Position numbers and translations under genes: made by a program
The notes under the pieces: model-generated
Database searches by the model: none
What the model was told of the DNA's origin: nothing
Seen by the model: the letters and a program-made list of their open reading frames with translations, nothing else
Part shown: positions 1 through 17,424 of the stretch, in pieces
Numbering within the stretch: position 1 is the first letter of the stretch
Layout of the letters: each line of letters starts with the position of its first letter
NCBI RefSeq assembly: GCF_013122565.1
Contig: NZ_CP053258.1
Direction: 5' to 3' (one strand)
Source of the DNA: Escherichia coli
Lineage (GTDB): Bacteria; Pseudomonadota; Gammaproteobacteria; Enterobacterales; Enterobacteriaceae
DNA: 64,000 bases

Positions 1-3000
1 AATGGTGATGCTTTTCGCCACTTCCGGGCTGGTGGTGTCGACCACCACGTTTTGCGTTGCGGTCTGCCCGACATTCCCCGCCAGATCCACCACCCGCACC
101 GTGTAGTTCCAGGTGCCGTCGGTAAGCGTGCGACCATCGGCATAGCTCCAGCTGGTGCCGATAACGGTTAACGTAGTCCAGGTAACACCGCCGTCGAGGC
201 TGATTTGCGCCCGTTCATCTGCCGCCAGCGCCGCGCCGAGCGTGCCACGCACGGTCAGCGTGGTGTCGCGAGTAACGAAATCGCTGCTGCTTAACCCGGT
301 GTCATCGCTGATGCCCGCAATGGCGATGGTTTTGCTCGCCAGCGGCGCGGTGGTGTCCACAGTGACTATCTGGCTGGCGGTGGCGCCGATATTTCCGGCG
401 GTATCGATCACCCGCACCTGGTAGTTGTAGTTGCCGTCGGTCAGCGTCCGCCCGTCAAGATAGCTCCAGGTCAAACCACTTACCGAAAGATTCTGCCAGG
501 TGGTGCCGCCATCAATGCTGATTTGCGCGAACTCACCGGCAGAAAGCGCCGCGCCCAGCGTGCCGCTCACCGCAAGCGTCGTGTCGCTGGTGACAAAATC
601 GTTAGTGATCAGGCCCGTATCGGTAGTGATCGCGCTGATGGCGATGGTTTTCACCGCGGGATCTGGCGCGGTAGTGTCGATCACCACATTCTGGCTGTCG
701 GTCGCGCCAACGTTGCCCGCTGCGTCAATCACCCGCACCTGATAGAGATAGTTACCATCGGTCAGCGTGCGGCTGTCGTTATAGCGCCAGGTCGTGCCGG
801 TAACGGTGAGCGTGGTCCAGGTTACGCCGCCGTCGATACTGATTTGCGCCGTCTCGTTACTGGCAAGCGCGGCGGTGAGCGAGCCGTTGACCACCACCGG
901 GCTGACGCTGGTGATAAAGTCGCTGGCGCTAAGCCCAGTGTCGGCTTGCAGGGAATCGATATTAATACCCATCGCCGGGGCGCTGAGATCGACAGTAATG
1001 GTGTGATTGCTGCTGCCGTTGTTGCCGATAGCGTTGCTCACCGAGGCGTTAATCACGTAGGCGTTGCCGTCCGCCAGCGCGGTGACATCGGCGCTGCCGA
1101 GGGTGTAGCTCCAGCTACCGCCGGTCTGTACCGTGGTGGTGTAGGTTTTACCGTTTAAAGTCAGGGTCAGCGTCTGTCCGACCGGCGCGGTGGTGGTGCC
1201 GCTGATAACCAAAGACGAGCCGTGTTCCGCTGCATTCACCACATCGTCGCCCGCAAAGGTGTTGATGGTGATGGTAGGCACATCGCCGTTCAACGTGACG
1301 CCACGGCTGGCGCTGCCGGGGTTTCCGGCCTGATCGGCGACCGTCGCGCTAATGGTGTAGCTGCCGTCGCTTAATCCGGCAAACTGCTGCGCCGGAATAA
1401 ACACCGACCAGCTTCCGCCGCTGCCGACCGTTGCGGTCCAGGTTTGCCCGTTAAAGGTAACGGTCACCGTCTGGCCCACTTCGGCGGTGGTGGTGCCGCT
1501 GATGGTCTGCCCGGCAAGCTGCTCGGCGTTGTTGATAATATCGTCACCCGCCACCGTGGCGATGGTCACCGTTGGCGCAACGGTATCGACGGTCAGGGCG
1601 TGCGTGGTTTGACCGGGGTTACCGGCGCGATCGTTCACGCTGGCGGTAATGGTCTGCGCACCCTGCCCGAGCGCGGCCAGATCCGCCGCAGGCACGTTCA
1701 GCGCCCAGGTGCCATTGGCGGCAACCGTGGCAGTGTAAGTTTTGCCGCCAAAGGTCACGGTGACCGTCTGCCCTACTTCCGCGCTGGTCGAGCCGTTAAG
1801 GGTTAACGGCTGCTGCTGTTCGGCGGCGTTGAGTCGGTCGTCCGTTGAAACGGTGTTTATGCTGATAATCGGCGCGGTGAGATCCACCGCCACGCTGCGC
1901 GAGGCCGTGGCGCTGTTTCCGGCACTGTCCTGCGCGGAGGCGCTAACCGTATAGCTGGTGCCATCCGCCAGTGCTGCAACGTCCGCCGCAGGCACATTCA
2001 CGCTCCAGCTCCCGTTGCTCTGAATGGTAGCGCTGTAGCCTTTGCCGTTAAGCAATACGGTCACCACTGTACCTGCGGCAAAGTTCGTTCCGGTGCCGCT
2101 CAGGGTCAGCGCACTGCCCGCTTCGGCGGCGTTAATAAGGTTATCGCCGCTGATAGTGCTGACCGAGAGCGACACTGCTGCCGTGTTTACCTGTACGTTG
2201 TGCGTCTGGGTGCTGCTGTTGCCTGCGCTATCGGTGATAGTGGCGCTGATAGTCACTGTGCCGTCTGCAAGGCCGGAAATCACGCTGGCAGGCACGCCGA
2301 CGCTCCAGTTGCCGCTGGCATCGGTGCTGGTGACATACTGCTGCCCGGCGATGGTCACCACCAGGCGGTCGCCCGCGACCGCGCCCGTGGCGGTGCCGCT
2401 GATAATCTGCGCCTGAGTGTGTTCGACGTTGTTAATCACATCATCGCCCGCCACGGTGTTGAAACTGATCACCGGCGCAGTGGTATCAACGGTCACACCT
2501 TTGCTGGCGCTGCCAGGGTTACCCGCCAGATCGCTGACCGTGGCGGTCAGGGTGTAGCCGTTATTAGCAAGTGCGGTTAAGTCGGTGGCGGGCAGCGTTA
2601 AACTCCAGCTGCCGTCCGCCTGCACCGTGGTCTGGTAGTTAGTGCCGTTAAGCGTGACGGTGAGCGTCTGCCCGGTTTGCGCGGTGCTGGTGCCGGACAC
2701 CGTTACGCCCGCCGCCGCTTCGCTGGCGTTGATGATGTTATCGCTGGCAATGGTGTTGATGGTGACCGTTGGCGCGGCGCTATCGACGCTGTATTCGTGC
2801 GTTGCCGTGGCGCTGTTACCGTTGACGTTAGTCACCCGCACCTGGGCGCTGGCATCGCCGTCACGCAGAGCCGCCATATCCGCAGCCGGAACGGTGGTAC
2901 TCCAGCTACCGTTTGCCGCCACCGTGGTGGTGTAGGTTTTACCGCCAAAGGTAATAGTGACGGTTTGCCCCGTTTCGACGCCGGACGTGCTGCCGGAGAG

Positions 3001-12000: not shown

Positions 12001-15000
12001 AGCAGCGTTAATCACATCGTCGCCGGAAACGGTGTTAATGGAAATCGCCACCGCCGCCAGATCGACGGTGACTGGATGGGTGATAGTCGTAGTCGTTTCT
12101 GCAGTGTTAGTGCCGCTTACAATGATATTCACTGTACCCGCTGGCCAGTTGCCCACGTCTGCTGCCGGAACGCCAACGCTCCATGTGCCATCGGCTAATA
12201 CTGTCGCGCCATAGGTGACGTTATTGATCACCACCGTCAGCGCCGCGCCCGCCGCCAGCCCGCTGCTGCTACCAGTTATCACCAGTGCCTGACCGTGTTC
12301 GATGCTGTTAACCACATCATCGCCCGCCACGGTATCGACGCGCAGGCCTGGCAGGTTGGCGTCGATAGTAATATCTCGCGAACCGCTGCCGGTATTGCCA
12401 ACGCCGTTGGTCACTGAGGCGTTAACCGTCAAGTCGCCATTACCGATGGCCTGAATATCCGCCGCCGGAACGTCCACGCTCCAGCTTAGATTCCCCTGCA
12501 CGGTAGCGGTGTAGGTTTTCCCGCCAAGCGTCACGGTAACCGTATCGCCCGCCGCCGCGCCCGTCACCTGGCCGCTGATGGTCTGCGCTACGCCCGATTC
12601 GGCGGCGTTAATAATATCGTCGCTCGCCACCGGATTAATGGTGACGCCAGGCAGCGCGGTATTGACCTGCACGTTATGGCTGGCGGAATTGCTGTTGCCT
12701 GCGCGGTCGGTGACGTTCGCCGTCACCGTGTAGCTGGCTTCGCCCAGCGCACCTACTGCGGAAGCAGGCACTATGGTGCTCCAGTTGCCTGCAGCGTCCG
12801 TCGTCGCAGTGTAATTTTGCCCGTTCAGCGTCAGCGTAATTGTCGTGCCTGCTGGCTGATTACTGGTGCCGGAAATTTGCAGATCCGCGCCTTTTTCGGT
12901 GGCGTTAATCACGTCATCGGTGGCGATGGTGTTAATGCCAATGGTCGGCGCGGTCAGATTCACTGTAACTGTGCGGCTGGCATCATCGCTATTGCCTGCC
13001 GCGTCGGTAATGCTGACAGTGATGGTTTGCGGGCCGCTGCCAAGCGCGGTGACATCTGCCGCCGGAACGCCGACGCTCCAGTTGCCGGAGGCGTCCAGCG
13101 TTGTTGTATAGGTTTTACTGTTTAGCGTGACGGTGACGACATCCCCCGCTTCTCCGCCCGTGCTGGAGCCGGAAATCACCAGCGCCTGCCCGTGTTCGGC
13201 GGCGTTGATAATATCATCGCCCGCAATGGTGTTGATGGTGAGTACCGGAACGGTGAGATCCACCGCCAGATTATGCGTGGTGCTCGCCGGGTTGCCCGCT
13301 TTGTCATTGACCGTGGCGGTCAGGGTGTGGCTGCCATCCGTCAATGCCGCAAGATCTGCCGCCGGAATGTTAATACTCCAGCTACCATCGGCCTGTACCG
13401 TTGCCTGATACGTATGCACGGTCGGGCTATTGAGCGTTACCGTAACAATCTGCCCTGCTTCAGCGGTGGTGCTGCCGCTCACCGTCACACCCGCATCGGC
13501 TTCGCTGGCGTTGACGATATTGTCGCTGGCGACGGTATTGATAATGATGGTTGGCGCGCTGCTGTCGACGCTGTAGTTATGCACCGCCGAGGCGCTATTG
13601 CCGTTGATATTGCTGACGCTGGCCTGCGCGGAGGCGCTGCCCTCTGGTAATGCCGCTAAATCGGCGGCAGGTACGGTGGCAGTCCAGCTACCATCGCTCG
13701 CTACGCTGGCGGTGTAATTTTTCCCGCCAAAGGTAACGGTGACGGTTTGACCGGGTTCTACATTAGTGGTGGTGCCGGAAAGGGTTAAATCAGCGCCTTT
13801 TTCTGCGGCGTTAATCACATCATCCGTGGCGATGGTGTTGATGGTAATCGCCGCCGGCGTGAGATCGACCGTAACCGGATGCGTAATGCTCACCGGATTT
13901 TCGGCGCTACTTTCCCCTGAAACGACAATATTAACCGTCCCCGCAGGCCAGGCGCTAACCTGCGCCGCCGTGACGCCCACGCTCCAGCTACCATCGGCCT
14001 GCACCGCAGTGGTGTATTCCACATTATTAATCGTAACGGTAAGCGGCGTGCCTTCTGCCAGCCCCGAGCTGCTGCCGGTGACAACCAGCGCCTGCCCGTG
14101 TTCGATGATATTGACCACATCATCGCCCGCCACCGTATCGACCCGCAGGCCGGGCAGATTGGCGTCGATGGTGATATCCCGCGTGCCGCTGCCGGTGTTG
14201 CCGTTTTGATTGGTGACTGAGGCACTCACCGTTAAATCGCCATTGCCCAGCGCCTGAATATCTGCCGCCGGAACGCTCACGCTCCAGCTTAAATTATCCT
14301 GCACGGTGGTGGTGTAGGTATTACCGCCCAGCGTAACGGTTACCGCGTCGCCAACTGCGGCTCCAGTAACCTGCCCTATGATGGTTTGCGGTACGCCCGC
14401 TTCGGCGGCGTTAATAATATCGTCGGTTGCCACCGGATTAATGGTCACACCGGGCAGCGCACTGTCGACCAGCACGTTATGGCTGGCGGTGTTGCTGTTG
14501 CCGATACTACTGGTCACCGCCGCTGTTACCGTGTAGTTGGCCTGGCCCAGTGCGGTTACTGCCGATGCCGGAACGGTGACGCTCCAGTTGCCGGAGGCGT
14601 CGGTCGTGGTGGTGTAATTTTGCCCGTTTAGCGTTACGGTGATGGCGGTATTAACAGGCTGATCGCTGGTGCCGGTAATCTGGACATCGGCTCCTTTTTC
14701 GCTGGCGTTAATCACATCATCGCCCGCAATGCTGTTAATGCCGATAAGGGGCGCGGCGGTATTGACCGTGACGGTCAATGACTGGCTGCCCGTGTTTCCG
14801 GCTTTGTCGGTTACCGAGACGCTGACAGGATAACTGCCGTCCACCAGTCCGCTGACAACGGAAGCCGGAACACCCAGACTCCAGTTGCCGGAACCATCCA
14901 CCACCGTGGTGTAATCCACATTATTCAGCGTAACGGTGACGATATCGCCCGCCTGAGCGCCAGTAACCGTGCCGCTGATGATTTGCGCCTGGGTGTGTTC

Positions 15001-16500
15001 CGGCGTGTTGATGACGTTATCGGTCGCCACCGGATTAATGGTTACCACCGGCGGCGTGGCATCCACCAGCGCCACCCGTGAAACGCTGCTCGGGTTACCG
15101 GCGACATCGTTCACGCTGGCGGTGACCGTGGCGTTGCCGTCAGCCAGTGCGTCAACGTTGGCGGCGGGAACGGTCACGCTCCAGGTGCCGTCTGGCTGCA
15201 CGACGCCCTGATAGGTTTGCCCATTCAACGTAACGGTCACCGTCTGCCCCGGCTGGGCGTCAGTGGTGCCGGTGATGGGCAGATCCTGCCCGCTTTCGGC
15301 GGCGTTAATGATGTTATCGGCGGTCAGTGGATCGATGCTTAAGGCCGGGGCCAGGCTATCGACGGTAATGGTGCGGGAGGTGTTGCCGGTATTGCCGCTG
15401 AGATCCGTCACAGAAGCGGTAATCGCCACCGCGCCGTCAGGCAGATTTCCCATCGCGGCGGCAGGTACCGTCAGACTCCAGGAGCCATCGGCCTGCACGG
15501 TAGTGGTAAAACTCTGTCCAGCCAGGGTTACTGTGACGGTTTGTCCTGTCTCGGCCTGTTGAGTGCTACCGGTAAGGGTCAGTGGCGCACCTTTTTCTGC
15601 GCCACTGATAATGTCATCGCCAGAGACGGTGTTAATGGTGATCAACGGAGAAACACCGACCAGCGTGATTGCTCGAGACGCCGCGCCGGTATTTCCTGCA
15701 GCATCTGTCACGGTGACGAAAATCGTATTGGCACCGCGATCCAGCGTGCGGGTTACCGCTGGGTCCAGCGCCACATTCCAGCTGCCATCTGCCAGCACAA
15801 TGCCCGTCAGGACATGAGTGCCCAATTTCACCGTTACCGTATCGCCAGGAGAAGCACCGCTGACTTGTCCGGAGATGATCTGCGCGACGGCCTGCTCAGC
15901 ATTATTAAGAATATCGTCGCCCGCTACGGTATTAACACTGACCACGGGTGCTGAGGTATCTACCGTGAAATTGGCGCTGTGGCTGGTGCTGTTCCCTGCC
16001 CGATCGCTGACACTGGCATTGACAGCGTAATTACCCTCCGCCAGTGCCTGGACCTCCGTGGCAGGCAGCGTCACTTGCCAGGTTCCGTCGCTACCGACGG
16101 TTGCTGTATGGCCTTTCCCGTTTACGGTCAGTGTTACGGTTTGCCCCGCTTCTGCATTCGACGTGCCGCTCAGTACCAGCGCAGCGTTATGTTCCGCAGC
16201 ACTGATGATGTTGTCCTGAGCGATGGTGTTGATGGCAAGCGTTGGCGGTTGGGTATCGACCGTTAGCAGCTGCGCGCCGGTGACCGTATTGCCTGTGGCG
16301 TCTTTCCCACTGACCAGCACCGCCTGATTCCCTTCGCCTAACGCCTGTGCATCGGCGGTCGGTACTTGTACGCTCCAGGCACCGTTAGCGCCTACGCTGG
16401 TGGTGTAGGTTTTGCCGTTTAGCGTAACGGTGAGTTCTGTTCCCTGTGCCAAATGACTACTGGTGCCAGAAAGCGTAAACCCGGCGGCCTGTTCGCTGGC
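1..16500 (-). repeat. Tandem coding repeats, unit ~300 bp (~100 aa Ig-like domain), dozens of copies
   Basis: Plus-strand spurious ORFs in the track recur with ~300-bp spacing and related translations (e.g. starts at 155, 500, 794; 1742, 2042; 4136, 4442, 4733). The nucleotide sequence is visibly periodic and G+C-rich. Confidence 0.85.
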
Positions 16501-17376
16501 GTTAATAATGTTATCGCCTGCGGTGGTGGCAACCTGCACGCTGGCCTGACTATTGTCGATGGTTAACGTTATCGAACCGGCGTCAGTGATGGTACTGCCG
16601 ACAATTTGCACCACTGACCAGGTATGTTCACCTGCACTTTGCGTGGGTAACGAGACACTCCAGTGACCGTTGTTGTCTACCTGAGTACTGGCAATAGTAT
16701 TGCCGTTACTGTCTTTAATCTGAATAGTCGCCCCCGCCTGCCCGCTGCCGCTAAAGGTTGGCGTGGTGTCATCGGTGATGTCATTGGTGGCGAGAATGCC
16801 GCGCTGATCGCCCTGATTATCGGTAACTAAAAATGATGGAGTGGCAACACCCGGTTCAGGCACAGGCTCAGCGGGTGGCGTAGGGTTATTAATCACTTCC
16901 GTTTTCGAGTCGCCATCACCACCGCTTGCCAGCAGTGCACCAAGCGCGCCACCGCCTACCGCCGCCCCCGCCAGCCATCCCCACGGGAAGGCGCTGGTCT
17001 GAGCAACGGTATCAAGAAATGGCGCAATGCTTTCAATCGCAGTGGTCTGGGCAGTCAGTTCTACTGGGGCTAATCCACCCGCAGCAGTATCGGCAAAGGT
17101 GACATGGGTTAACTGTTGCCCATCGGCAAACACCAGTTCCGATTGTTCAGCCGTATTTGCCGCTTGCAGGAAATAACCGTTGCAGCGGATCACCGTGCCG
17201 TCCTGCATATAGATCAGCAGGTCATTTCCTTCACGGACGTAACGCGCAACGGCAGAGGCCTGAGCATGAACCTGCACCACGGAAGGCTCATAAATAACAA
17301 CCGTGACGTCGCCAGGATTAATCAGCGTTTGTTTGACGGATGTTTTACGCGAAATAACATCAATAATCAGGCTCAT
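1..17376 (-). CDS. Giant surface/secreted adhesin (BapA-like N-terminal domain + tandem bacterial Ig-like repeat domains), putative T1SS substrate; 5' end in window, 3' end beyond left edge (partial, >=5792 codons)
   Basis: Hand translation of the minus strand from ATG 17376..17374 (AGGAA Shine-Dalgarno ~8 nt upstream; in-frame TAA at 17409..17407) gives MSLIIDVISRKTSVKQTLINPGDVTVVIYEPSVVQVHAQASAVARYVREGNDLLIYMQDGTVIRCNGYFLQAANTAEQSELVFADGQQLTHVTFAD..., with no Sec-type signal peptide. Hand translation of 180..1 gives ...WTTLTVIGTSWSYADGRTLTDGTWNYTVRVVDLAGNVGQTATQNVVVDTTSPEVAKSITI, a typical Ig-like adhesin repeat. The ORF track reports no complete ORF in this minus frame between 1 and 17376, while all other frames are chopped into 60-280 aa pieces; this implies one uninterrupted frame with no stop before the edge. 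Confidence 0.85.
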   Translation of the reverse strand, partial: MSLIIDVISRKTSVKQTLINPGDVTVVIYEPSVVQVHAQASAVARYVREGNDLLIYMQDGTVIRCNGYFLQAANTAEQSELVFADGQQLTHVTFADTAAGGLAPVELTAQTTAIESIAPFLDTVAQTSAFPWGWLAGAAVGGGALGALLASGGDGDSKTEVINNPTPPAEPVPEPGVATPSFLVTDNQGDQRGILATNDITDDTTPTFSGSGQAGATIQIKDSNGNTIASTQVDNNGHWSVSLPTQSAGEHTWSVVQIVGSTITDAGSITLTIDNSQASVQVATTAGDNIINASEQAAGFTLSGTSSHLAQGTELTVTLNGKTYTTSVGANGAWSVQVPTADAQALGEGNQAVLVSGKDATGNTVTGAQLLTVDTQPPTLAINTIAQDNIISAAEHNAALVLSGTSNAEAGQTVTLTVNGKGHTATVGSDGTWQVTLPATEVQALAEGNYAVNASVSDRAGNSTSHSANFTVDTSAPVVSVNTVAGDDILNNAEQAVAQIISGQVSGASPGDTVTVKLGTHVLTGIVLADGSWNVALDPAVTRTLDRGANTIFVTVTDAAGNTGAASRAITLVGVSPLITINTVSGDDIISGAEKGAPLTLTGSTQQAETGQTVTVTLAGQSFTTTVQADGSWSLTVPAAAMGNLPDGAVAITASVTDLSGNTGNTSRTITVDSLAPALSIDPLTADNIINAAESGQDLPITGTTDAQPGQTVTVTLNGQTYQGVVQPDGTWSVTVPAANVDALADGNATVTASVNDVAGNPSSVSRVALVDATPPVVTINPVATDNVINTPEHTQAQIISGTVTGAQAGDIVTVTLNNVDYTTVVDGSGNWSLGVPASVVSGLVDGSYPVSVSVTDKAGNTGSQSLTVTVNTAAPLIGINSIAGDDVINASEKGADVQITGTSDQPVNTAITVTLNGQNYTTTTDASGNWSVTVPASAVTALGQANYTVTAAVTSSIGNSNTASHNVLVDSALPGVTINPVATDDIINAAEAGVPQTIIGQVTGAAVGDAVTVTLGGNTYTTTVQDNLSWSVSVPAADIQALGNGDLTVSASVTNQNGNTGSGTRDITIDANLPGLRVDTVAGDDVVNIIEHGQALVVTGSSSGLAEGTPLTVTINNVEYTTAVQADGSWSVGVTAAQVSAWPAGTVNIVVSGESSAENPVSITHPVTVDLTPAAITINTIATDDVINAAEKGADLTLSGTTTNVEPGQTVTVTFGGKNYTASVASDGSWTATVPAADLAALPEGSASAQASVSNINGNSASAVHNYSVDSSAPTIIINTVASDNIVNASEADAGVTVSGSTTAEAGQIVTVTLNSPTVHTYQATVQADGSWSINIPAADLAALTDGSHTLTATVNDKAGNPASTTHNLAVDLTVPVLTINTIAGDDIINAAEHGQALVISGSSTGGEAGDVVTVTLNSKTYTTTLDASGNWSVGVPAADVTALGSGPQTITVSITDAAGNSDDASRTVTVNLTAPTIGINTIATDDVINATEKGADLQISGTSNQPAGTTITLTLNGQNYTATTDAAGNWSTIVPASAVGALGEASYTVTANVTDRAGNSNSASHNVQVNTALPGVTINPVASDDIINAAESGVAQTISGQVTGAAAGDTVTVTLGGKTYTATVQGNLSWSVDVPAADIQAIGNGDLTVNASVTNGVGNTGSGSRDITIDANLPGLRVDTVAGDDVVNSIEHGQALVITGSSSGLAAGAALTVVINNVTYGATVLADGTWSVGVPAADVGNWPAGTVNIIVSGTNTAETTTTITHPVTVDLAAVAISINTVSGDDVINAAEKSADLTLSGSTSGVEAGQTVTVTFGGKTYTATVAGDGSWTTTVPAADLSALRDGDATVQASVSTINGNTASATHAYSVDATAPTLAINTIATDDILNAAEAGNPLTISGSSSAEAGQTVTVTLNGVTYSGTVLADGSWSVSVPTADLSNLTASQYTVSASVSDKAGNPASTTHGLAVDLTVPVLTINTVSGDDIINAAEHGQALVISGSSTGGEAGDVITVTLNSKTYTTTLDASGNWSVGVPLSDVTALGSGPHTITAAITDAAGNSDDASRTVTVNLTAPTIGINTIADDNVINATEKGADLQITGTSNQPAGTTITVTLNGQNYTATTDSNGNWSATVPASAVSALGEANYTVTANVTDTAGNSNSASHNVLVNSALPAVTINAVATDDIINAAESGNAQTISGQVTGAAQGDTVTVTLGGNTYTATVQSNLSWSVDVPAADIQALGNGDLTVNASVTNGVGNTGSGSRDITIDANLPGLRVDTVAGDDVINSIEHNQALVITGSSSGLTAGTALTVEINNVTYGATVLADGTWSLGVPAVDVSNWPAGTVNITVSGTNSAGTTSTITHPVTVDLAGVAITINTLSGDDVINAVEKGETLVVSGSTSGVESGQTVTVTFGGKNYTTTVEANGSWTVNVPPADLASLPDGAGNVQASVSNINGNNAQADRTYSVDATAPLVTINTIASDDILNVSEAGAGITISGTTTAQAGQTLTVTLNNNTYQTTVQADGTWSVNVPAADLSGLTASSYTVTATVSDKAGNPASADHALAVDVTAPDLTINTVAGDDIINAIEHGQALVVSGTSTGAEPGDVVTVTLNGKNYTTTLDASGNWSVGIPAADVTALATGSQTITASLSDRAGNSDSTTHNVTVDLSGPTLTISIVSGDDIINNAEKTQDLTISGGSSGLAAGTTVTVMLNGLAYSATTDGSGNWSVTVPASAVGALGEAVYSISASATDSAGNSGSTTHTVNVESLLPGVIINTVAGDDIINAAEIIVAQTISGQVTGTAVAGNTVIVTIGGNQYTATVQPDLSWSVSVPANVLQALGNGELTISASVTNSANNTGTATHDIVIDANLPGLRVDTVAGDDVINSIEHTQALVVTGSSSGLVAGAALTVVINGVTYGATVLADGTWSVGVSAADVGNWPAGTVNIAVSGTNTAGTTTSISHPVTVDLAAVAITINTLSTDDVINAAEKGSDLQLSGTTSGVEVGQTITVIFGGKSYTTTVATGGTWGLTIPAADLATLPDGAANVQASVSNVAGNIAQATHAYTVDATAPSVTINTIASDDILNANEADSALTISGTSTAEAGQTVTVTLNGVNYSGNVQADGSWSVSVPTGDLANLTASSYTVNASVSDKAGNPASATHNLTVDLVAPVVTINTVAGDDIINATEHGQAQIISGSATGATTGNTVSVTIGSNTYTTVLDANGNWSIGVPASVISALAQGDVTITATVTDSAGNSGTASHTVTVALGAPILSINTIAVDDIINATEKGADLAITGTSNQPAGTQITITLNGQNYTTTADASGNWSVTVPASRVSALGEATYTVTAAATDTDGNSGSASHNVQVNTALPGVTINVVASDDIINAAEAGAGQTISGQVTGAAAGDTVTVTLGGATYTATVQANLSWSVDVPAPALQALGNGELTISASVTNSVGNTGNGTREITIDANLPGLRVDTVAGDDVVNIIEHNQALVITGSSSDLAAGSNVTLTINGQTYVAAVLADGSWSVGVPAADVSAWPAGKVTITASGNTTAGNPVSVTHPVTVDLTAVAVSINAITVDDVINAAEKGAALTLSGSTSGVEAGQTVTVTFGGKTYSATVAANGSWSTSVPAADMAALRDGDASAQASVSNVNGNSATTTHAYSVDASAPTVTINTIAGDDILNAAEAGAALTITGSSTAEAGQTVTVTLNGTNYTGTVQTDGSWSVSVPPADLSALTASNYTVNAAVSDKAGNPASVNHNLTVDTSVPVVTINTVAGDDVINATEHTQAQIISGSATGAATGSTVTVTIGTNTFTTVLDASGNWSVGVPASVVSALANGTVTINASVTDAGGNSGSTTHQVTVNTGLPTITFNSISGDNVLNADEKGQPLTISGNSTGLATGAQVTVTLNGHNYSATTDAAGNWTLTVPVSDLAALGQANYTVSVSATSAAGNTASSQANLLVDSGLPGVTISTVAGDDIINAAEAGAGQTISGQVTGAAAGDTVTVTLGGATYTATVQANLSWSVDVPASALQALGNGELTISASVTNSVGNTGNGTREITIDANLPGLRIDTVAGDDVVNIIEHDQALVITGSSSDLAAGSNVTLTINGQTYVAAVLADSTWSVGIPAADVSAWPAGTVTITASGNTTAGNPVSVSHPFTVDLTAVAISINTVASDDVINAAEKGTDLIISGSTSGIESGQTVTVTFGGKTYTASVAANGSWSVTVPAADLATLPDGAANVQASVSSASGNSASATHAYSVDASAPTLTINTIASDDILNATEAGNPLTISGTSTAETGQAVTVTLNGATYTGTVQADGSWSISVPISALDALSASNYTVSATVNDKAGNPGSASHNLAVDTTAPVLTINTVAGDDIINDAEHAQALVISGTSTGGEAGDVVSVVLNGKTYTTTLDASGNWSVGVPAADVTALGSGAQTITASVSDRARNSDDASRTVTVSLSAPVISINTIAGDDVINATEKGSDLALSGTSDQPAGTAITVTLNGQNYSATTDASGNWSVTVPASAVSALGEATYSVTASVTNAQGNSSTASHNVQVNTALPGVTINPVATDDIINASEAGSAQTISGQVTGAAAGSTVTVELGGKTYTATVQADLSWYVSVPAADWQALGNGELTVNASVTNAVGNTGSGTRDITIDASLPGLRVDTVAGDDVVNIIEHSQAQVITGSSTGFAAGTALTVVINNQTYAATVLANGSWSVGVPATDVSNWPAGTLNITVSGANSAGTQTSITHPLTVDLTTVAISINAITPDDVINAAEKGAALTLSGSTSGVETGQTVTITFGGKTYTTTVAANGSWSTTVPAADMAALRDGDASAQVRVTNVNGNSATATHEYSVDSAAPTVTINTIASDNIINASEAAAGVTVSGTSTAQTGQTLTVTLNGTNYQTTVQADGSWSLTLPATDLTALANNGYTLTATVSDLAGNPGSASKGVTVDTTAPVISFNTVAGDDVINNVEHTQAQIISGTATGAVAGDRLVVTIAGQQYVTSTDASGNWSVGVPASVISGLADGTVTISATITDSAGNSSTQTHNVQVNTAAVSLSVSTISGDNLINAAEAGSALTLSGTGTNFAAGTVVTVLLNGKGYSATIQSNGSWSVNVPAADVAALADGTSYTVSASAQDSAGNSATASRSVAVDLTAPIISINTVSTDDRLNAAEQQQPLTLNGSTSAEVGQTVTVTFGGKTYTATVAANGTWALNVPAADLAALGQGAQTITASVNDRAGNPGQTTHALTVDTVAPTVTIATVAGDDIINNAEQLAGQTISGTTTAEVGQTVTVTFNGQTWTATVGSGGSWSVFIPAQQFAGLSDGSYTISATVADQAGNPGSASRGVTLNGDVPTITINTFAGDDVVNAAEHGSSLVISGTTTAPVGQTLTLTLNGKTYTTTVQTGGSWSYTLGSADVTALADGNAYVINASVSNAIGNNGSSNHTITVDLSAPAMGINIDSLQADTGLSASDFITSVSPVVVNGSLTAALASNETAQISIDGGVTWTTLTVTGTTWRYNDSRTLTDGNYLYQVRVIDAAGNVGATDSQNVVIDTTAPDPAVKTIAISAITTDTGLITNDFVTSDTTLAVSGTLGAALSAGEFAQISIDGGTTWQNLSVSGLTWSYLDGRTLTDGNYNYQVRVIDTAGNIGATASQIVTVDTTAPLASKTIAIAGISDDTGLSSSDFVTRDTTLTVRGTLGAALAADERAQISLDGGVTWTTLTVIGTSWSYADGRTLTDGTWNYTVRVVDLAGNVGQTATQNVVVDTTSPEVAKSITI
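2942..14200 (-). repeat. Higher-order super-repeat, period ~1794-1800 bp (six ~300-bp units), at least 6 tandem copies
   Basis: Equivalent track ORFs beginning MPPKVTVTVCP/MTVCP recur at about 2942, 4733, 6530, 8324, 10124, 11921 and 13721. Other families recur at the same spacing (5632 vs 7429; 5120 vs 6905; 11072 vs 12866). Confidence 0.8.
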
Positions 17377-17388
17377 AATGGCATTCCT

Positions 17389-17424
17389 GATAAATGGCGC
17401 ACATCCTTAGCGAGTCCATTTATC
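17389..17424 (-). promoter_or_regulatory. Perfect 9-bp inverted repeat (GATAAATGG-N18-CCATTTATC) in the OMP-adhesin spacer, abutting the adhesin Shine-Dalgarno
   Basis: Read directly from the sequence: arms at 17389..17397 and 17416..17424. Function is unknown (hairpin or dimeric-regulator site). Confidence 0.35.

Follow-up and report, generated by a model that had tools for sequence, protein, structure and literature searches.

Why should a giant adhesin gene of Escherichia coli, built from immunoglobulin-like (Ig-like) domains of about 100 amino acids, carry a DNA period six domains long? The question arises in a 64,000-nt stretch of E. coli DNA (contig NZ_CP053258.1 of assembly GCF_013122565.1; the whole stretch is hereafter called the window), for which an initial annotation, made from the letters alone, had described ~300-bp units nested within a ~1.8-kb super-repeat between 2942 and 14200. 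That annotation assigned the array neither to the minus strand, on which it is encoded, nor to the annotated gene to which it belongs. The gene is siiEA, which encodes a giant type I-secreted BapA-related RTX adhesin of ~6900 amino acids, and the locus is O-island 28 (OI-28) of O157:H7. We consider it highly probable that the region is the extender, or stalk, of SiiEA, that it arose by ancient block copying of a six-domain run, and that it has since been conserved and has recombined only rarely.

siiEA runs off the start of the window, and its first 5792 codons occupy 1..17376 on the minus strand. The frame is free of stops over 1..17406 (5802 codons), with the ATG at 17376 as the likely start. 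The assignment is based on this stop-free frame, on orthologous annotated loci and on the match of the N-terminal 290 amino acids to the NCBIfam model NF047714, 'BapA-related adhesin SiiEA' (507 bits, with a curated cutoff of 425). Since the orthologue in strain 18KM2445 has 6929 amino acids, the window holds ~84% of siiEA, and ~1137 C-terminal codons lie outside it. The open reading frame listing made for the window lacks siiEA because the gene runs off the window.

The first point to settle is which of the two periods is the stronger. In-frame DNA autocorrelation of the gene gave a top lag of 1794 (0.475, with a median of 0.306), followed by 7185, which equals four of the six-domain units or cassettes, and then by multiples of ~300 bp. 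The ~1.8-kb period thus outranks the ~300-bp period, as had been claimed at the outset. In 300-bp sliding windows over ~2100-15000, identity was 60-95% at multiples of 1794-1803 bp and 55-62% at other ~300-bp lags. Tandem Repeats Finder reported no repeat in the array, whose period exceeds 500 and whose copies are too diverged.

The same pattern is seen in the protein, where an anchor motif was used to cut the window product into 52 Ig-like domains of 99-102 amino acids. Domains separated by a multiple of six share 47-96% amino acid identity (mean 0.71), against a mean of 0.44 and a maximum of 0.58 for the remaining pairs, so that the six domains of one super-unit do differ from one another, as first described. 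By spacing, mean identity is 0.69-0.72 at 6, 12, 18 and 24 domains and 0.43-0.46 at every other spacing. None of 10000 shuffles of the domain order reached the observed contrast (0.265 observed; 0.06 or less in the shuffles). A three-domain sub-period within the cassette, considered because of a faint rise at lags 3, 9 and 15 (0.46 versus 0.44), was rejected, there being no matching pairs of classes.

Hidden Markov model (HMM) profiles of the six classes, built from the window, gave the architecture x5-F-(ABCDEF)x7-x4. Domains 7-48 form seven complete tandem A-B-C-D-E-F cassettes at 2176-14751, each of 1794-1803 bp. All lie on the minus strand: cassette 1 (D7-D12, classes A-F, 1803 bp) at 12949..14751, cassette 2 (D13-D18, 1794 bp) at 11155..12948, cassette 3 (D19-D24, 1794 bp) at 9361..11154, cassette 4 (D25-D30, 1800 bp) at 7561..9360, cassette 5 (D31-D36, 1794 bp) at 5767..7560, cassette 6 (D37-D42, 1797 bp) at 3970..5766 and cassette 7 (D43-D48, 1794 bp) at 2176..3969. 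The A domain of cassette 4 (D25) is the most divergent A, and is absent from O157 alleles. The initial count of at least six copies was therefore correct but one short. The seven positions at which equivalent features had been noticed, about 2942, 4733, 6530, 8324, 10124, 11921 and 13721, fall in register, one per cassette, each 763-772 nt from its low-coordinate edge. Ahead of the array in the reading direction, class HMM scores place six further Ig-like domains, D1-D6, at 14752..16545 on the minus strand. D4-D6 are weakly of classes d-e-F (D6 has a mean identity of 0.57 to class F, and D4 of 0.51 to class D), and form the degenerate remnant of an eighth cassette.

How old is the cassette? 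DNA identity between cassettes is 67-77% (mean 71%), and at their longest, exact in-register runs measure 19-44 bp, depending on the pair compared. For same-class domains in the window, the median number of synonymous substitutions per synonymous site (dS) is 1.09, with a ratio of nonsynonymous to synonymous rates (dN/dS) of 0.18. Positional orthologues between strains have a dS of 0.22 and a dN/dS of 0.10, the latter indicating that each cassette copy is under purifying selection. Each domain of eight other E. coli alleles has its best match in the window domain of the same number, with DNA identities of 85-100%; the seven copies were thus already distinct in the common ancestor of these E. 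coli alleles.

Homologues outside E. coli, for which the first 10 kb of each gene was read, take the cassette back further. The Enterobacter hormaechei homologue, with an N-terminus 57% identical, keeps the A-B-C-D-E-F order, and the top lag of its DNA is 1797. The Pseudocitrobacter faecalis homologue reads as abcDeF five times when scored with the E. coli class profiles, and its DNA has no 1.8-kb peak. The A-F order recurs in an Escherichia other than E. coli, whose copA is 89% identical. Domains of the same class have an identity of 0.58-0.64 between E. coli and Enterobacter, which is higher than the 0.40-0.47 between classes within E. coli, and the two taxa have class signatures in common. 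Taken together with the shared order, this indicates that the six classes and their order predate the split of these genes. The proposal that the array grew by duplication of a six-domain cassette is thus upheld, the A-F order being present in all seven copies as well as in E. hormaechei and P. faecalis. The duplication is old, and the copies have since diverged and been kept individually. Within a species, same-class identity is 0.65-0.80, above the between-genus range. In all three foreign homologues that were fetched, a stop or frameshift interrupts the gene after 350-420 codons, which probably reflects selection bias, as the protein search gave only short N-terminal products of 175-497 amino acids.

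The siiEA alleles of E. coli are unusually diverged for this species: in comparison with 18KM2445, the array has a dS of 0.22, the neighbouring tolC-like gene one of 0.10 and ybaT one of 0.04. Complete identity between strains is nevertheless found for some domains, for instance D20-D21 of the window and O157, at 100%. Identical domains amid such divergence suggest that siiEA is a mosaic formed by exchange between alleles.

An old array may still change in length, and steps of ~600 amino acids had been predicted between strains. Allele lengths were taken from annotated siiEA in complete genomes, and architectures from the class profiles; BLAST spans are unreliable where the matched pieces are fragmented (one genome seemed 5.4 kb shorter, and its annotated gene is 20748 nt). 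Seven cassettes, in genes of 20748-20790 nt, are the commonest arrangement among complete E. coli genomes with siiEA, and the layout, at 20778-20790 nt, is found in many independent ones. An allele of 18975 nt has six cassettes, lacking domains 23-28 (strains 266917_2, FFFEB2 and RIVM_C019217), and one of 17187 nt has five, lacking domains 35-46 (GPEC1446). In strain 2017-02-2CC a gene of 15678 nt has about four cassettes, with 17 domains absent, out of register, and its coding sequence is intact. Other alleles are irregular: that of O157 strains (20160 nt) lacks domain 25 alone and has an internal stop, that of CE10 (17006 nt) is irregular and frameshifted, and alleles of ~21680 nt, all frameshifted, have three extra domains, a-B-f, early in the array. 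Of 60 carriers spread by rank, 29 rows have the full seven-cassette length, 5 have six cassettes, 1 has five and ~17 are of the O157 type. The prediction therefore holds for the alleles with seven, six and five cassettes and fails to cover the differences of 1, 17 and 3 domains.

Several of these alleles merit comment in their own right. In O157:H7 and a related cattle strain, siiEA has an in-frame stop at codon 1462 and no domain 25, and is a pseudogene in RefSeq. The genes z0609 and z0615, the 'two RTX proteins' of the OI-28 study (PMC12758282), look like two pieces of one siiEA gene. The a-B-f alleles of E. coli, four in number and each frameshifted, line up with an extra 'a-B-C' before d-e-F in Enterobacter. 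With a-B-(c) preceding d-e-F both there and in these longer E. coli genes, the a-B-f alleles may keep an ancestral eighth cassette that is partly lost in the common E. coli allele. Strain GDSC2227PM has lost almost the whole of siiEA, a short prefix-domain open reading frame being left beside the type I secretion ABC transporter gene, and in strain PE164 an IS4-family element lies inside siiEA, making the span ~1.4 kb longer than the query.

In both the six- and the five-cassette alleles, the sequence switches from left to right parent at the D|E domain boundary, which sits in a motif conserved in all domains. Recombination at domain boundaries means that changes other than multiples of six also arise. 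A 600-bp probe laid over the six-cassette junction matched at 99% identity or more in 86 of 955 genomes; the next band comprised two genomes at 90-95%, and the remainder fell below 90%. This distribution, with 86 genomes at the top and a gap below, points to one inherited event. The five-cassette junction was found in one genome only.

Exchange without change of length is also visible. Cassette 6 of the window contains a gene-conversion tract in D38-D39, at 4900..5445 on the minus strand, that matches the corresponding stretch of cassette 5 at 91-97% identity (lag 1797); in cassette 5 the donor-like copy lies at about 6697-7242. Identity between D32 and D38 and between D33 and D39 is 0.94 and 0.91, respectively, in the window, and 0.69-0.78 in four other strains, while D38-D39 of the window are 75-79% identical to their positional orthologues elsewhere. 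Probing with the tract found no complete E. coli genome above 93%, and the tract is specific to the window. It explains the strongest diagonal that was open to the initial annotation.

What kind of stalk would such an array make? The Ig-like nature of the ~100-amino acid units is borne out at several levels. The domain family calls are Pfam Big_13 and NCBIfam Ca_tandemer, and one cassette matches the RII tetra-tandemer of MpIBP, the ice-binding adhesin of Marinomonas primoryensis (PDB 4P99), with a phmmer E of 1.7e-69. An AlphaFold2 model of cassette 2, made from an alignment of 20 cassettes, consists of six beta-sandwiches with a mean predicted local distance difference test score (pLDDT) of 93.5. 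In a Foldseek comparison with solved structures, this model matched best to 4P99, 5IRB and the MhLap tetra-tandemer 6XI3. SiiEA domains and RII have in common the motifs DD(V/I)IN..E, NG.TYT.TVDA.G.WSV and SDAAGN. Acidic and amide motifs conserved in SiiEA also align with the RII repeats. The classes differ at some of these positions: class B has 'nLSWS' where the others have 'D.sGnWS', and class C lacks the 'D.AGN' loop motif. Both differences are also conserved in Enterobacter. Judged from these motifs, a periodic pattern of Ca2+ sites along the cassette is possible.

The repeats of 4P99 form a Ca2+-stiffened rod with ~47 Å per repeat, each turned by ~90 degrees (PMC4083281). By homology, the SiiEA stalk would be the same kind of Ca2+-stiffened spacer. 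At 4.7 nm per domain, as in 4P99, one cassette would span ~28 nm, and a stalk with nearly 60 domains would measure roughly 0.25-0.3 µm. The rod-like stalk that had been envisaged is thus supported by homology. As for the long-range structural repeat envisaged along with it, ~90 degrees per repeat would not give whole turns per six domains. The idea that six domains make one helical turn likewise found no support, since the angle of the homologous repeat corresponds to 1.5 turns per cassette. Divergence of adjacent domains as a means of avoiding misfolding was set aside as the main explanation, since MpIBP works with identical neighbours.

The anatomy of the array and its class order, like the age estimates, the allele series and the positions of the junctions, were read directly, and the history that we propose for them is as follows. 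A chain of Ca2+-binding Ig-like beta-sandwich domains would, by homology, hold the C-terminal FG-GAP and RTX region off the cell. An ancestral run of six already-different domains, A-F, would have been copied as a block, the likely mechanism being unequal homologous recombination at the motif common to all domain boundaries, and the outcome would be seven copies and a degenerate eighth. Since this ancient copying, each copy has diverged under purifying selection. The same recombination would be rare today, with in-register events removing one or two cassettes, out-of-register events removing 1 or 17 domains, and short gene-conversion tracts, such as that in the window, overwriting part of a cassette with sequence from another. 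With every cassette that is lost, the stalk should become ~28 nm shorter.

Several of the observations that support this history would also be expected if the cassette were a functional unit, its six classes being non-interchangeable and selection keeping both their order and the whole-cassette unit. Such a unit might, for example, place Ca2+ sites periodically to give stiffer or softer joints, or present a surface period for side-by-side packing or ligand contact. Conservation of the A-F order in three genera, the class-specific signatures common to E. coli and Enterobacter, the dN/dS of 0.10 and the class differences at motifs aligned with the conserved acidic and amide positions of RII are all consistent with it. 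However, any old duplicate of a folded domain should likewise keep its order and show purifying selection, and MpIBP, whose stalk is homologous, functions with ~120 identical repeats (PMC4083281). At ~90 degrees per repeat, six domains also do not add up to whole turns, and the register is broken in alleles from which 1, 17 or 3 domains are missing, the 15678-nt allele (17 absent) being intact. We therefore regard this explanation as rather unlikely. We hold equally little confidence in the related proposal that the cassette is a selected module, in which a fixed pattern of Ca2+ sites, joints or surface recurs every ~28 nm and cassettes can be gained or lost to tune stalk length without disturbing that pattern. 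If it were true, stalk length would be tuned by lineage, for instance against the depth of O-antigen or capsule. For the number six itself we found no evidence of a structural meaning, given the lack of a three-domain period, the 1.5 turns per cassette and the intact alleles that break the register.

A different view of the 1.8-kb period is that it reflects recent or continuing homogenisation of every sixth domain, siiEA being a fast-changing contingency repeat. The conversion tract in the window, the several length alleles within the species and the somewhat higher same-class identity within species than between genera all point in this direction. Homogenised copies would, however, scarcely be expected to differ as these do, with a DNA identity of 67-77%, no exact run longer than 44 bp and a same-class dS of ~1.1. 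Nor would positional orthology be strict in every strain examined, or about half of the rank-spread carriers keep seven cassettes, and the six-cassette allele, with its single junction in 86 genomes, indicates one inherited event and not recurrent change. A contingency repeat has near-identical units that allow frequent copy-number change, which siiEA does not. This explanation seems to us very improbable. Least probable of all, and close to negligible, is that faulty assembly of a repetitive gene produced the periodicity or the number of copies. The repeat numbers of giant adhesins are often misassembled (PMC7493085), but here the copies differ by 23-33% of their DNA, so that reads place uniquely, the seven-cassette layout and length recur in many independent complete genomes, and the reading frame is intact across 5792 codons.

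The history of ancient block copying that we prefer has points to be set against it. The five- and about four-cassette alleles are single genomes, in which an assembly error is conceivable, although the coding sequence is intact and in frame in both. Given that same-class identity is higher within species than between genera, some of the copies could be separate gains of each lineage, or conversion could have made the copies partly alike; the cross-genus comparison covers the first 10 kb of each foreign gene. Ca2+ binding and rigidity would be carried over to SiiEA by homology, and a functional effect of stalk length is conjectural. Finally, the C-terminal RTX repeats and secretion signal lie outside the window and are seen in the 18KM2445 orthologue only.

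The remaining parts of the gene and its surroundings fit a type I-secreted adhesin. A BapA-prefix-like N-terminal domain, presumed to be the surface-retention part, covers amino acids 5-69 (17170..17364, minus strand; NF033677 E=1.1e-19, with PF22783 on close homologues). It is followed at amino acids 129-153 by a Gly/Ala-rich hydrophobic segment, AFPWGWLAGAAVGGGALGALLASGG (16918..16992, minus strand), identified from the translation. Beyond the array, at 979..2175 on the minus strand, are four Ig-like domains, D49-D52, of the same family and outside the six-class order. They are followed at 1..978, on the same strand, by a different type of Ig-like repeat, of 106 amino acids and present in three copies, with a DNA lag of 318-321 (Ca_tandemer E=1.9e-14). 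These copies are 59-67% identical to one another, and the 18KM2445 orthologue has five regular ones at amino acids 5479-6009. Past the part covered by the window, SiiEA of that strain continues with further Ig-like domains, FG-GAP repeats and RTX nonapeptide repeats, the FG-GAP repeats coming after the 106-amino acid repeats and before the RTX repeats. Its C-terminus matches HemolysinCabind (E=2e-4) and contains two GGxGxD-like nonapeptides; the corresponding part of the window gene lies outside.

Directly upstream of siiEA, at 17479..18834 on the minus strand, is the gene for a TolC-family outer-membrane component of a dedicated type I secretion system (TIGR01844 E=5.5e-125), and beyond it, away from siiEA, the window has ybaT, glsA and copA. 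In orthologous loci the genes after siiEA encode a type I secretion ABC transporter and an HlyD-family adaptor, with cueR next. Dedicated secretion genes thus adjoin siiEA on both accounts, the TolC-family gene in the window and the ABC transporter and HlyD genes in the orthologous loci, and the gene order of the window locus is that of annotated E. coli loci. Of 5426 complete E. coli genomes, 958 carry the locus, every copy being chromosomal and annotated siiEA, and over its housekeeping DNA the window shows 99.3% identity to E. coli. The G+C content of siiEA is 60.5% (0.71 at third codon positions), compared with 52-54% in the tolC-like gene, ybaT and glsA. The difference is consistent with a foreign source of the island, with the compositional effect of a protein rich in Thr, Ala, Val and Gly, or with both.

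siiEA, the family it belongs to, its secretion system and its part in adherence are already known and annotated. SiiEA was recently reported to be necessary for early adherence of enterohaemorrhagic E. coli O157:H7, and deletion of OI-28 lowers epithelial adherence and gut colonisation (PMC12758282). What is added here is descriptive detail on a known protein and not a new kind of system. In the searchable literature we found no description of the six-domain cassette of SiiEA, of its conservation across genera or of the E. coli allele series. For work on OI-28, the stalk can now be seen as a six-domain cassette in seven copies, each of them old and conserved in its own right. Within the species, alleles with seven, six, five and about four cassettes form a natural series that offers a ready test of stalk length against adhesion, in steps of ~28 nm. 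As the copies differ by 23-33% of their DNA, siiEA is easy to assemble and slow to rearrange, unlike adhesins with identical repeats.

How, then, does the window allele compare with what has been described? It is the same gene as the annotated siiEA (NF047714) of OI-28 (z0609-z0615 of O157:H7 EDL933), with up to 97.8% DNA identity, and occupies the same chromosomal site, in the order ybaT, tolC-like gene, siiEA, type I secretion ABC transporter, HlyD, cueR. Unlike the O157 alleles examined, which have the internal stop at codon 1462 and no domain 25, it is intact over the part covered, and unlike other siiEA alleles it has a conversion tract of its own. The OI-28 paper gives 'multiple Ig-like domains' and leaves the six-domain cassette unmentioned (PMC12758282).

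Within the Enterobacteriaceae, SiiE of Salmonella (encoded in Salmonella pathogenicity island 4) and BapA, also of Salmonella, are, like SiiEA, giant type I-secreted adhesins with tens of bacterial Ig domains, and BapA has the N-terminal prefix domain (NF033677) in common with it. SiiEA is named after SiiE by annotation analogy only, and SiiE was not among the sequence matches of the SiiEA cassette to solved structures at E<=0.01. Outside the bacteria, titin has fixed-order super-repeats of 7 and 11 Ig and fibronectin type III domains, and its period matches a partner filament. We know of no partner with a matching period for SiiEA.

The closest parallels are the RII region of MpIBP (also called MpAFP; 4P99) and MhLap (6XI3), which share the domain family of SiiEA and presumably the same role, that of a Ca2+-stiffened spacer in a type I-secreted adhesin. 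The repeats themselves are organised quite differently: MpIBP has ~120 repeats that are identical even in DNA (PMC4083281), whereas SiiEA repeats a fixed series of six classes seven times, and these classes are 37-50% identical to one another. The repeats of MhLap and AhLap are 65-95% alike (PMC7493085). For other RTX adhesins, a 2026 preprint mentions dissimilar extenders in pairs that are 'repeated in series', and 'more complex patterns' (bioRxiv 10.1101/2025.09.30.679566). Compared with these multi-extender units, that of SiiEA comprises six domains, and its copies are old and conserved across genera.

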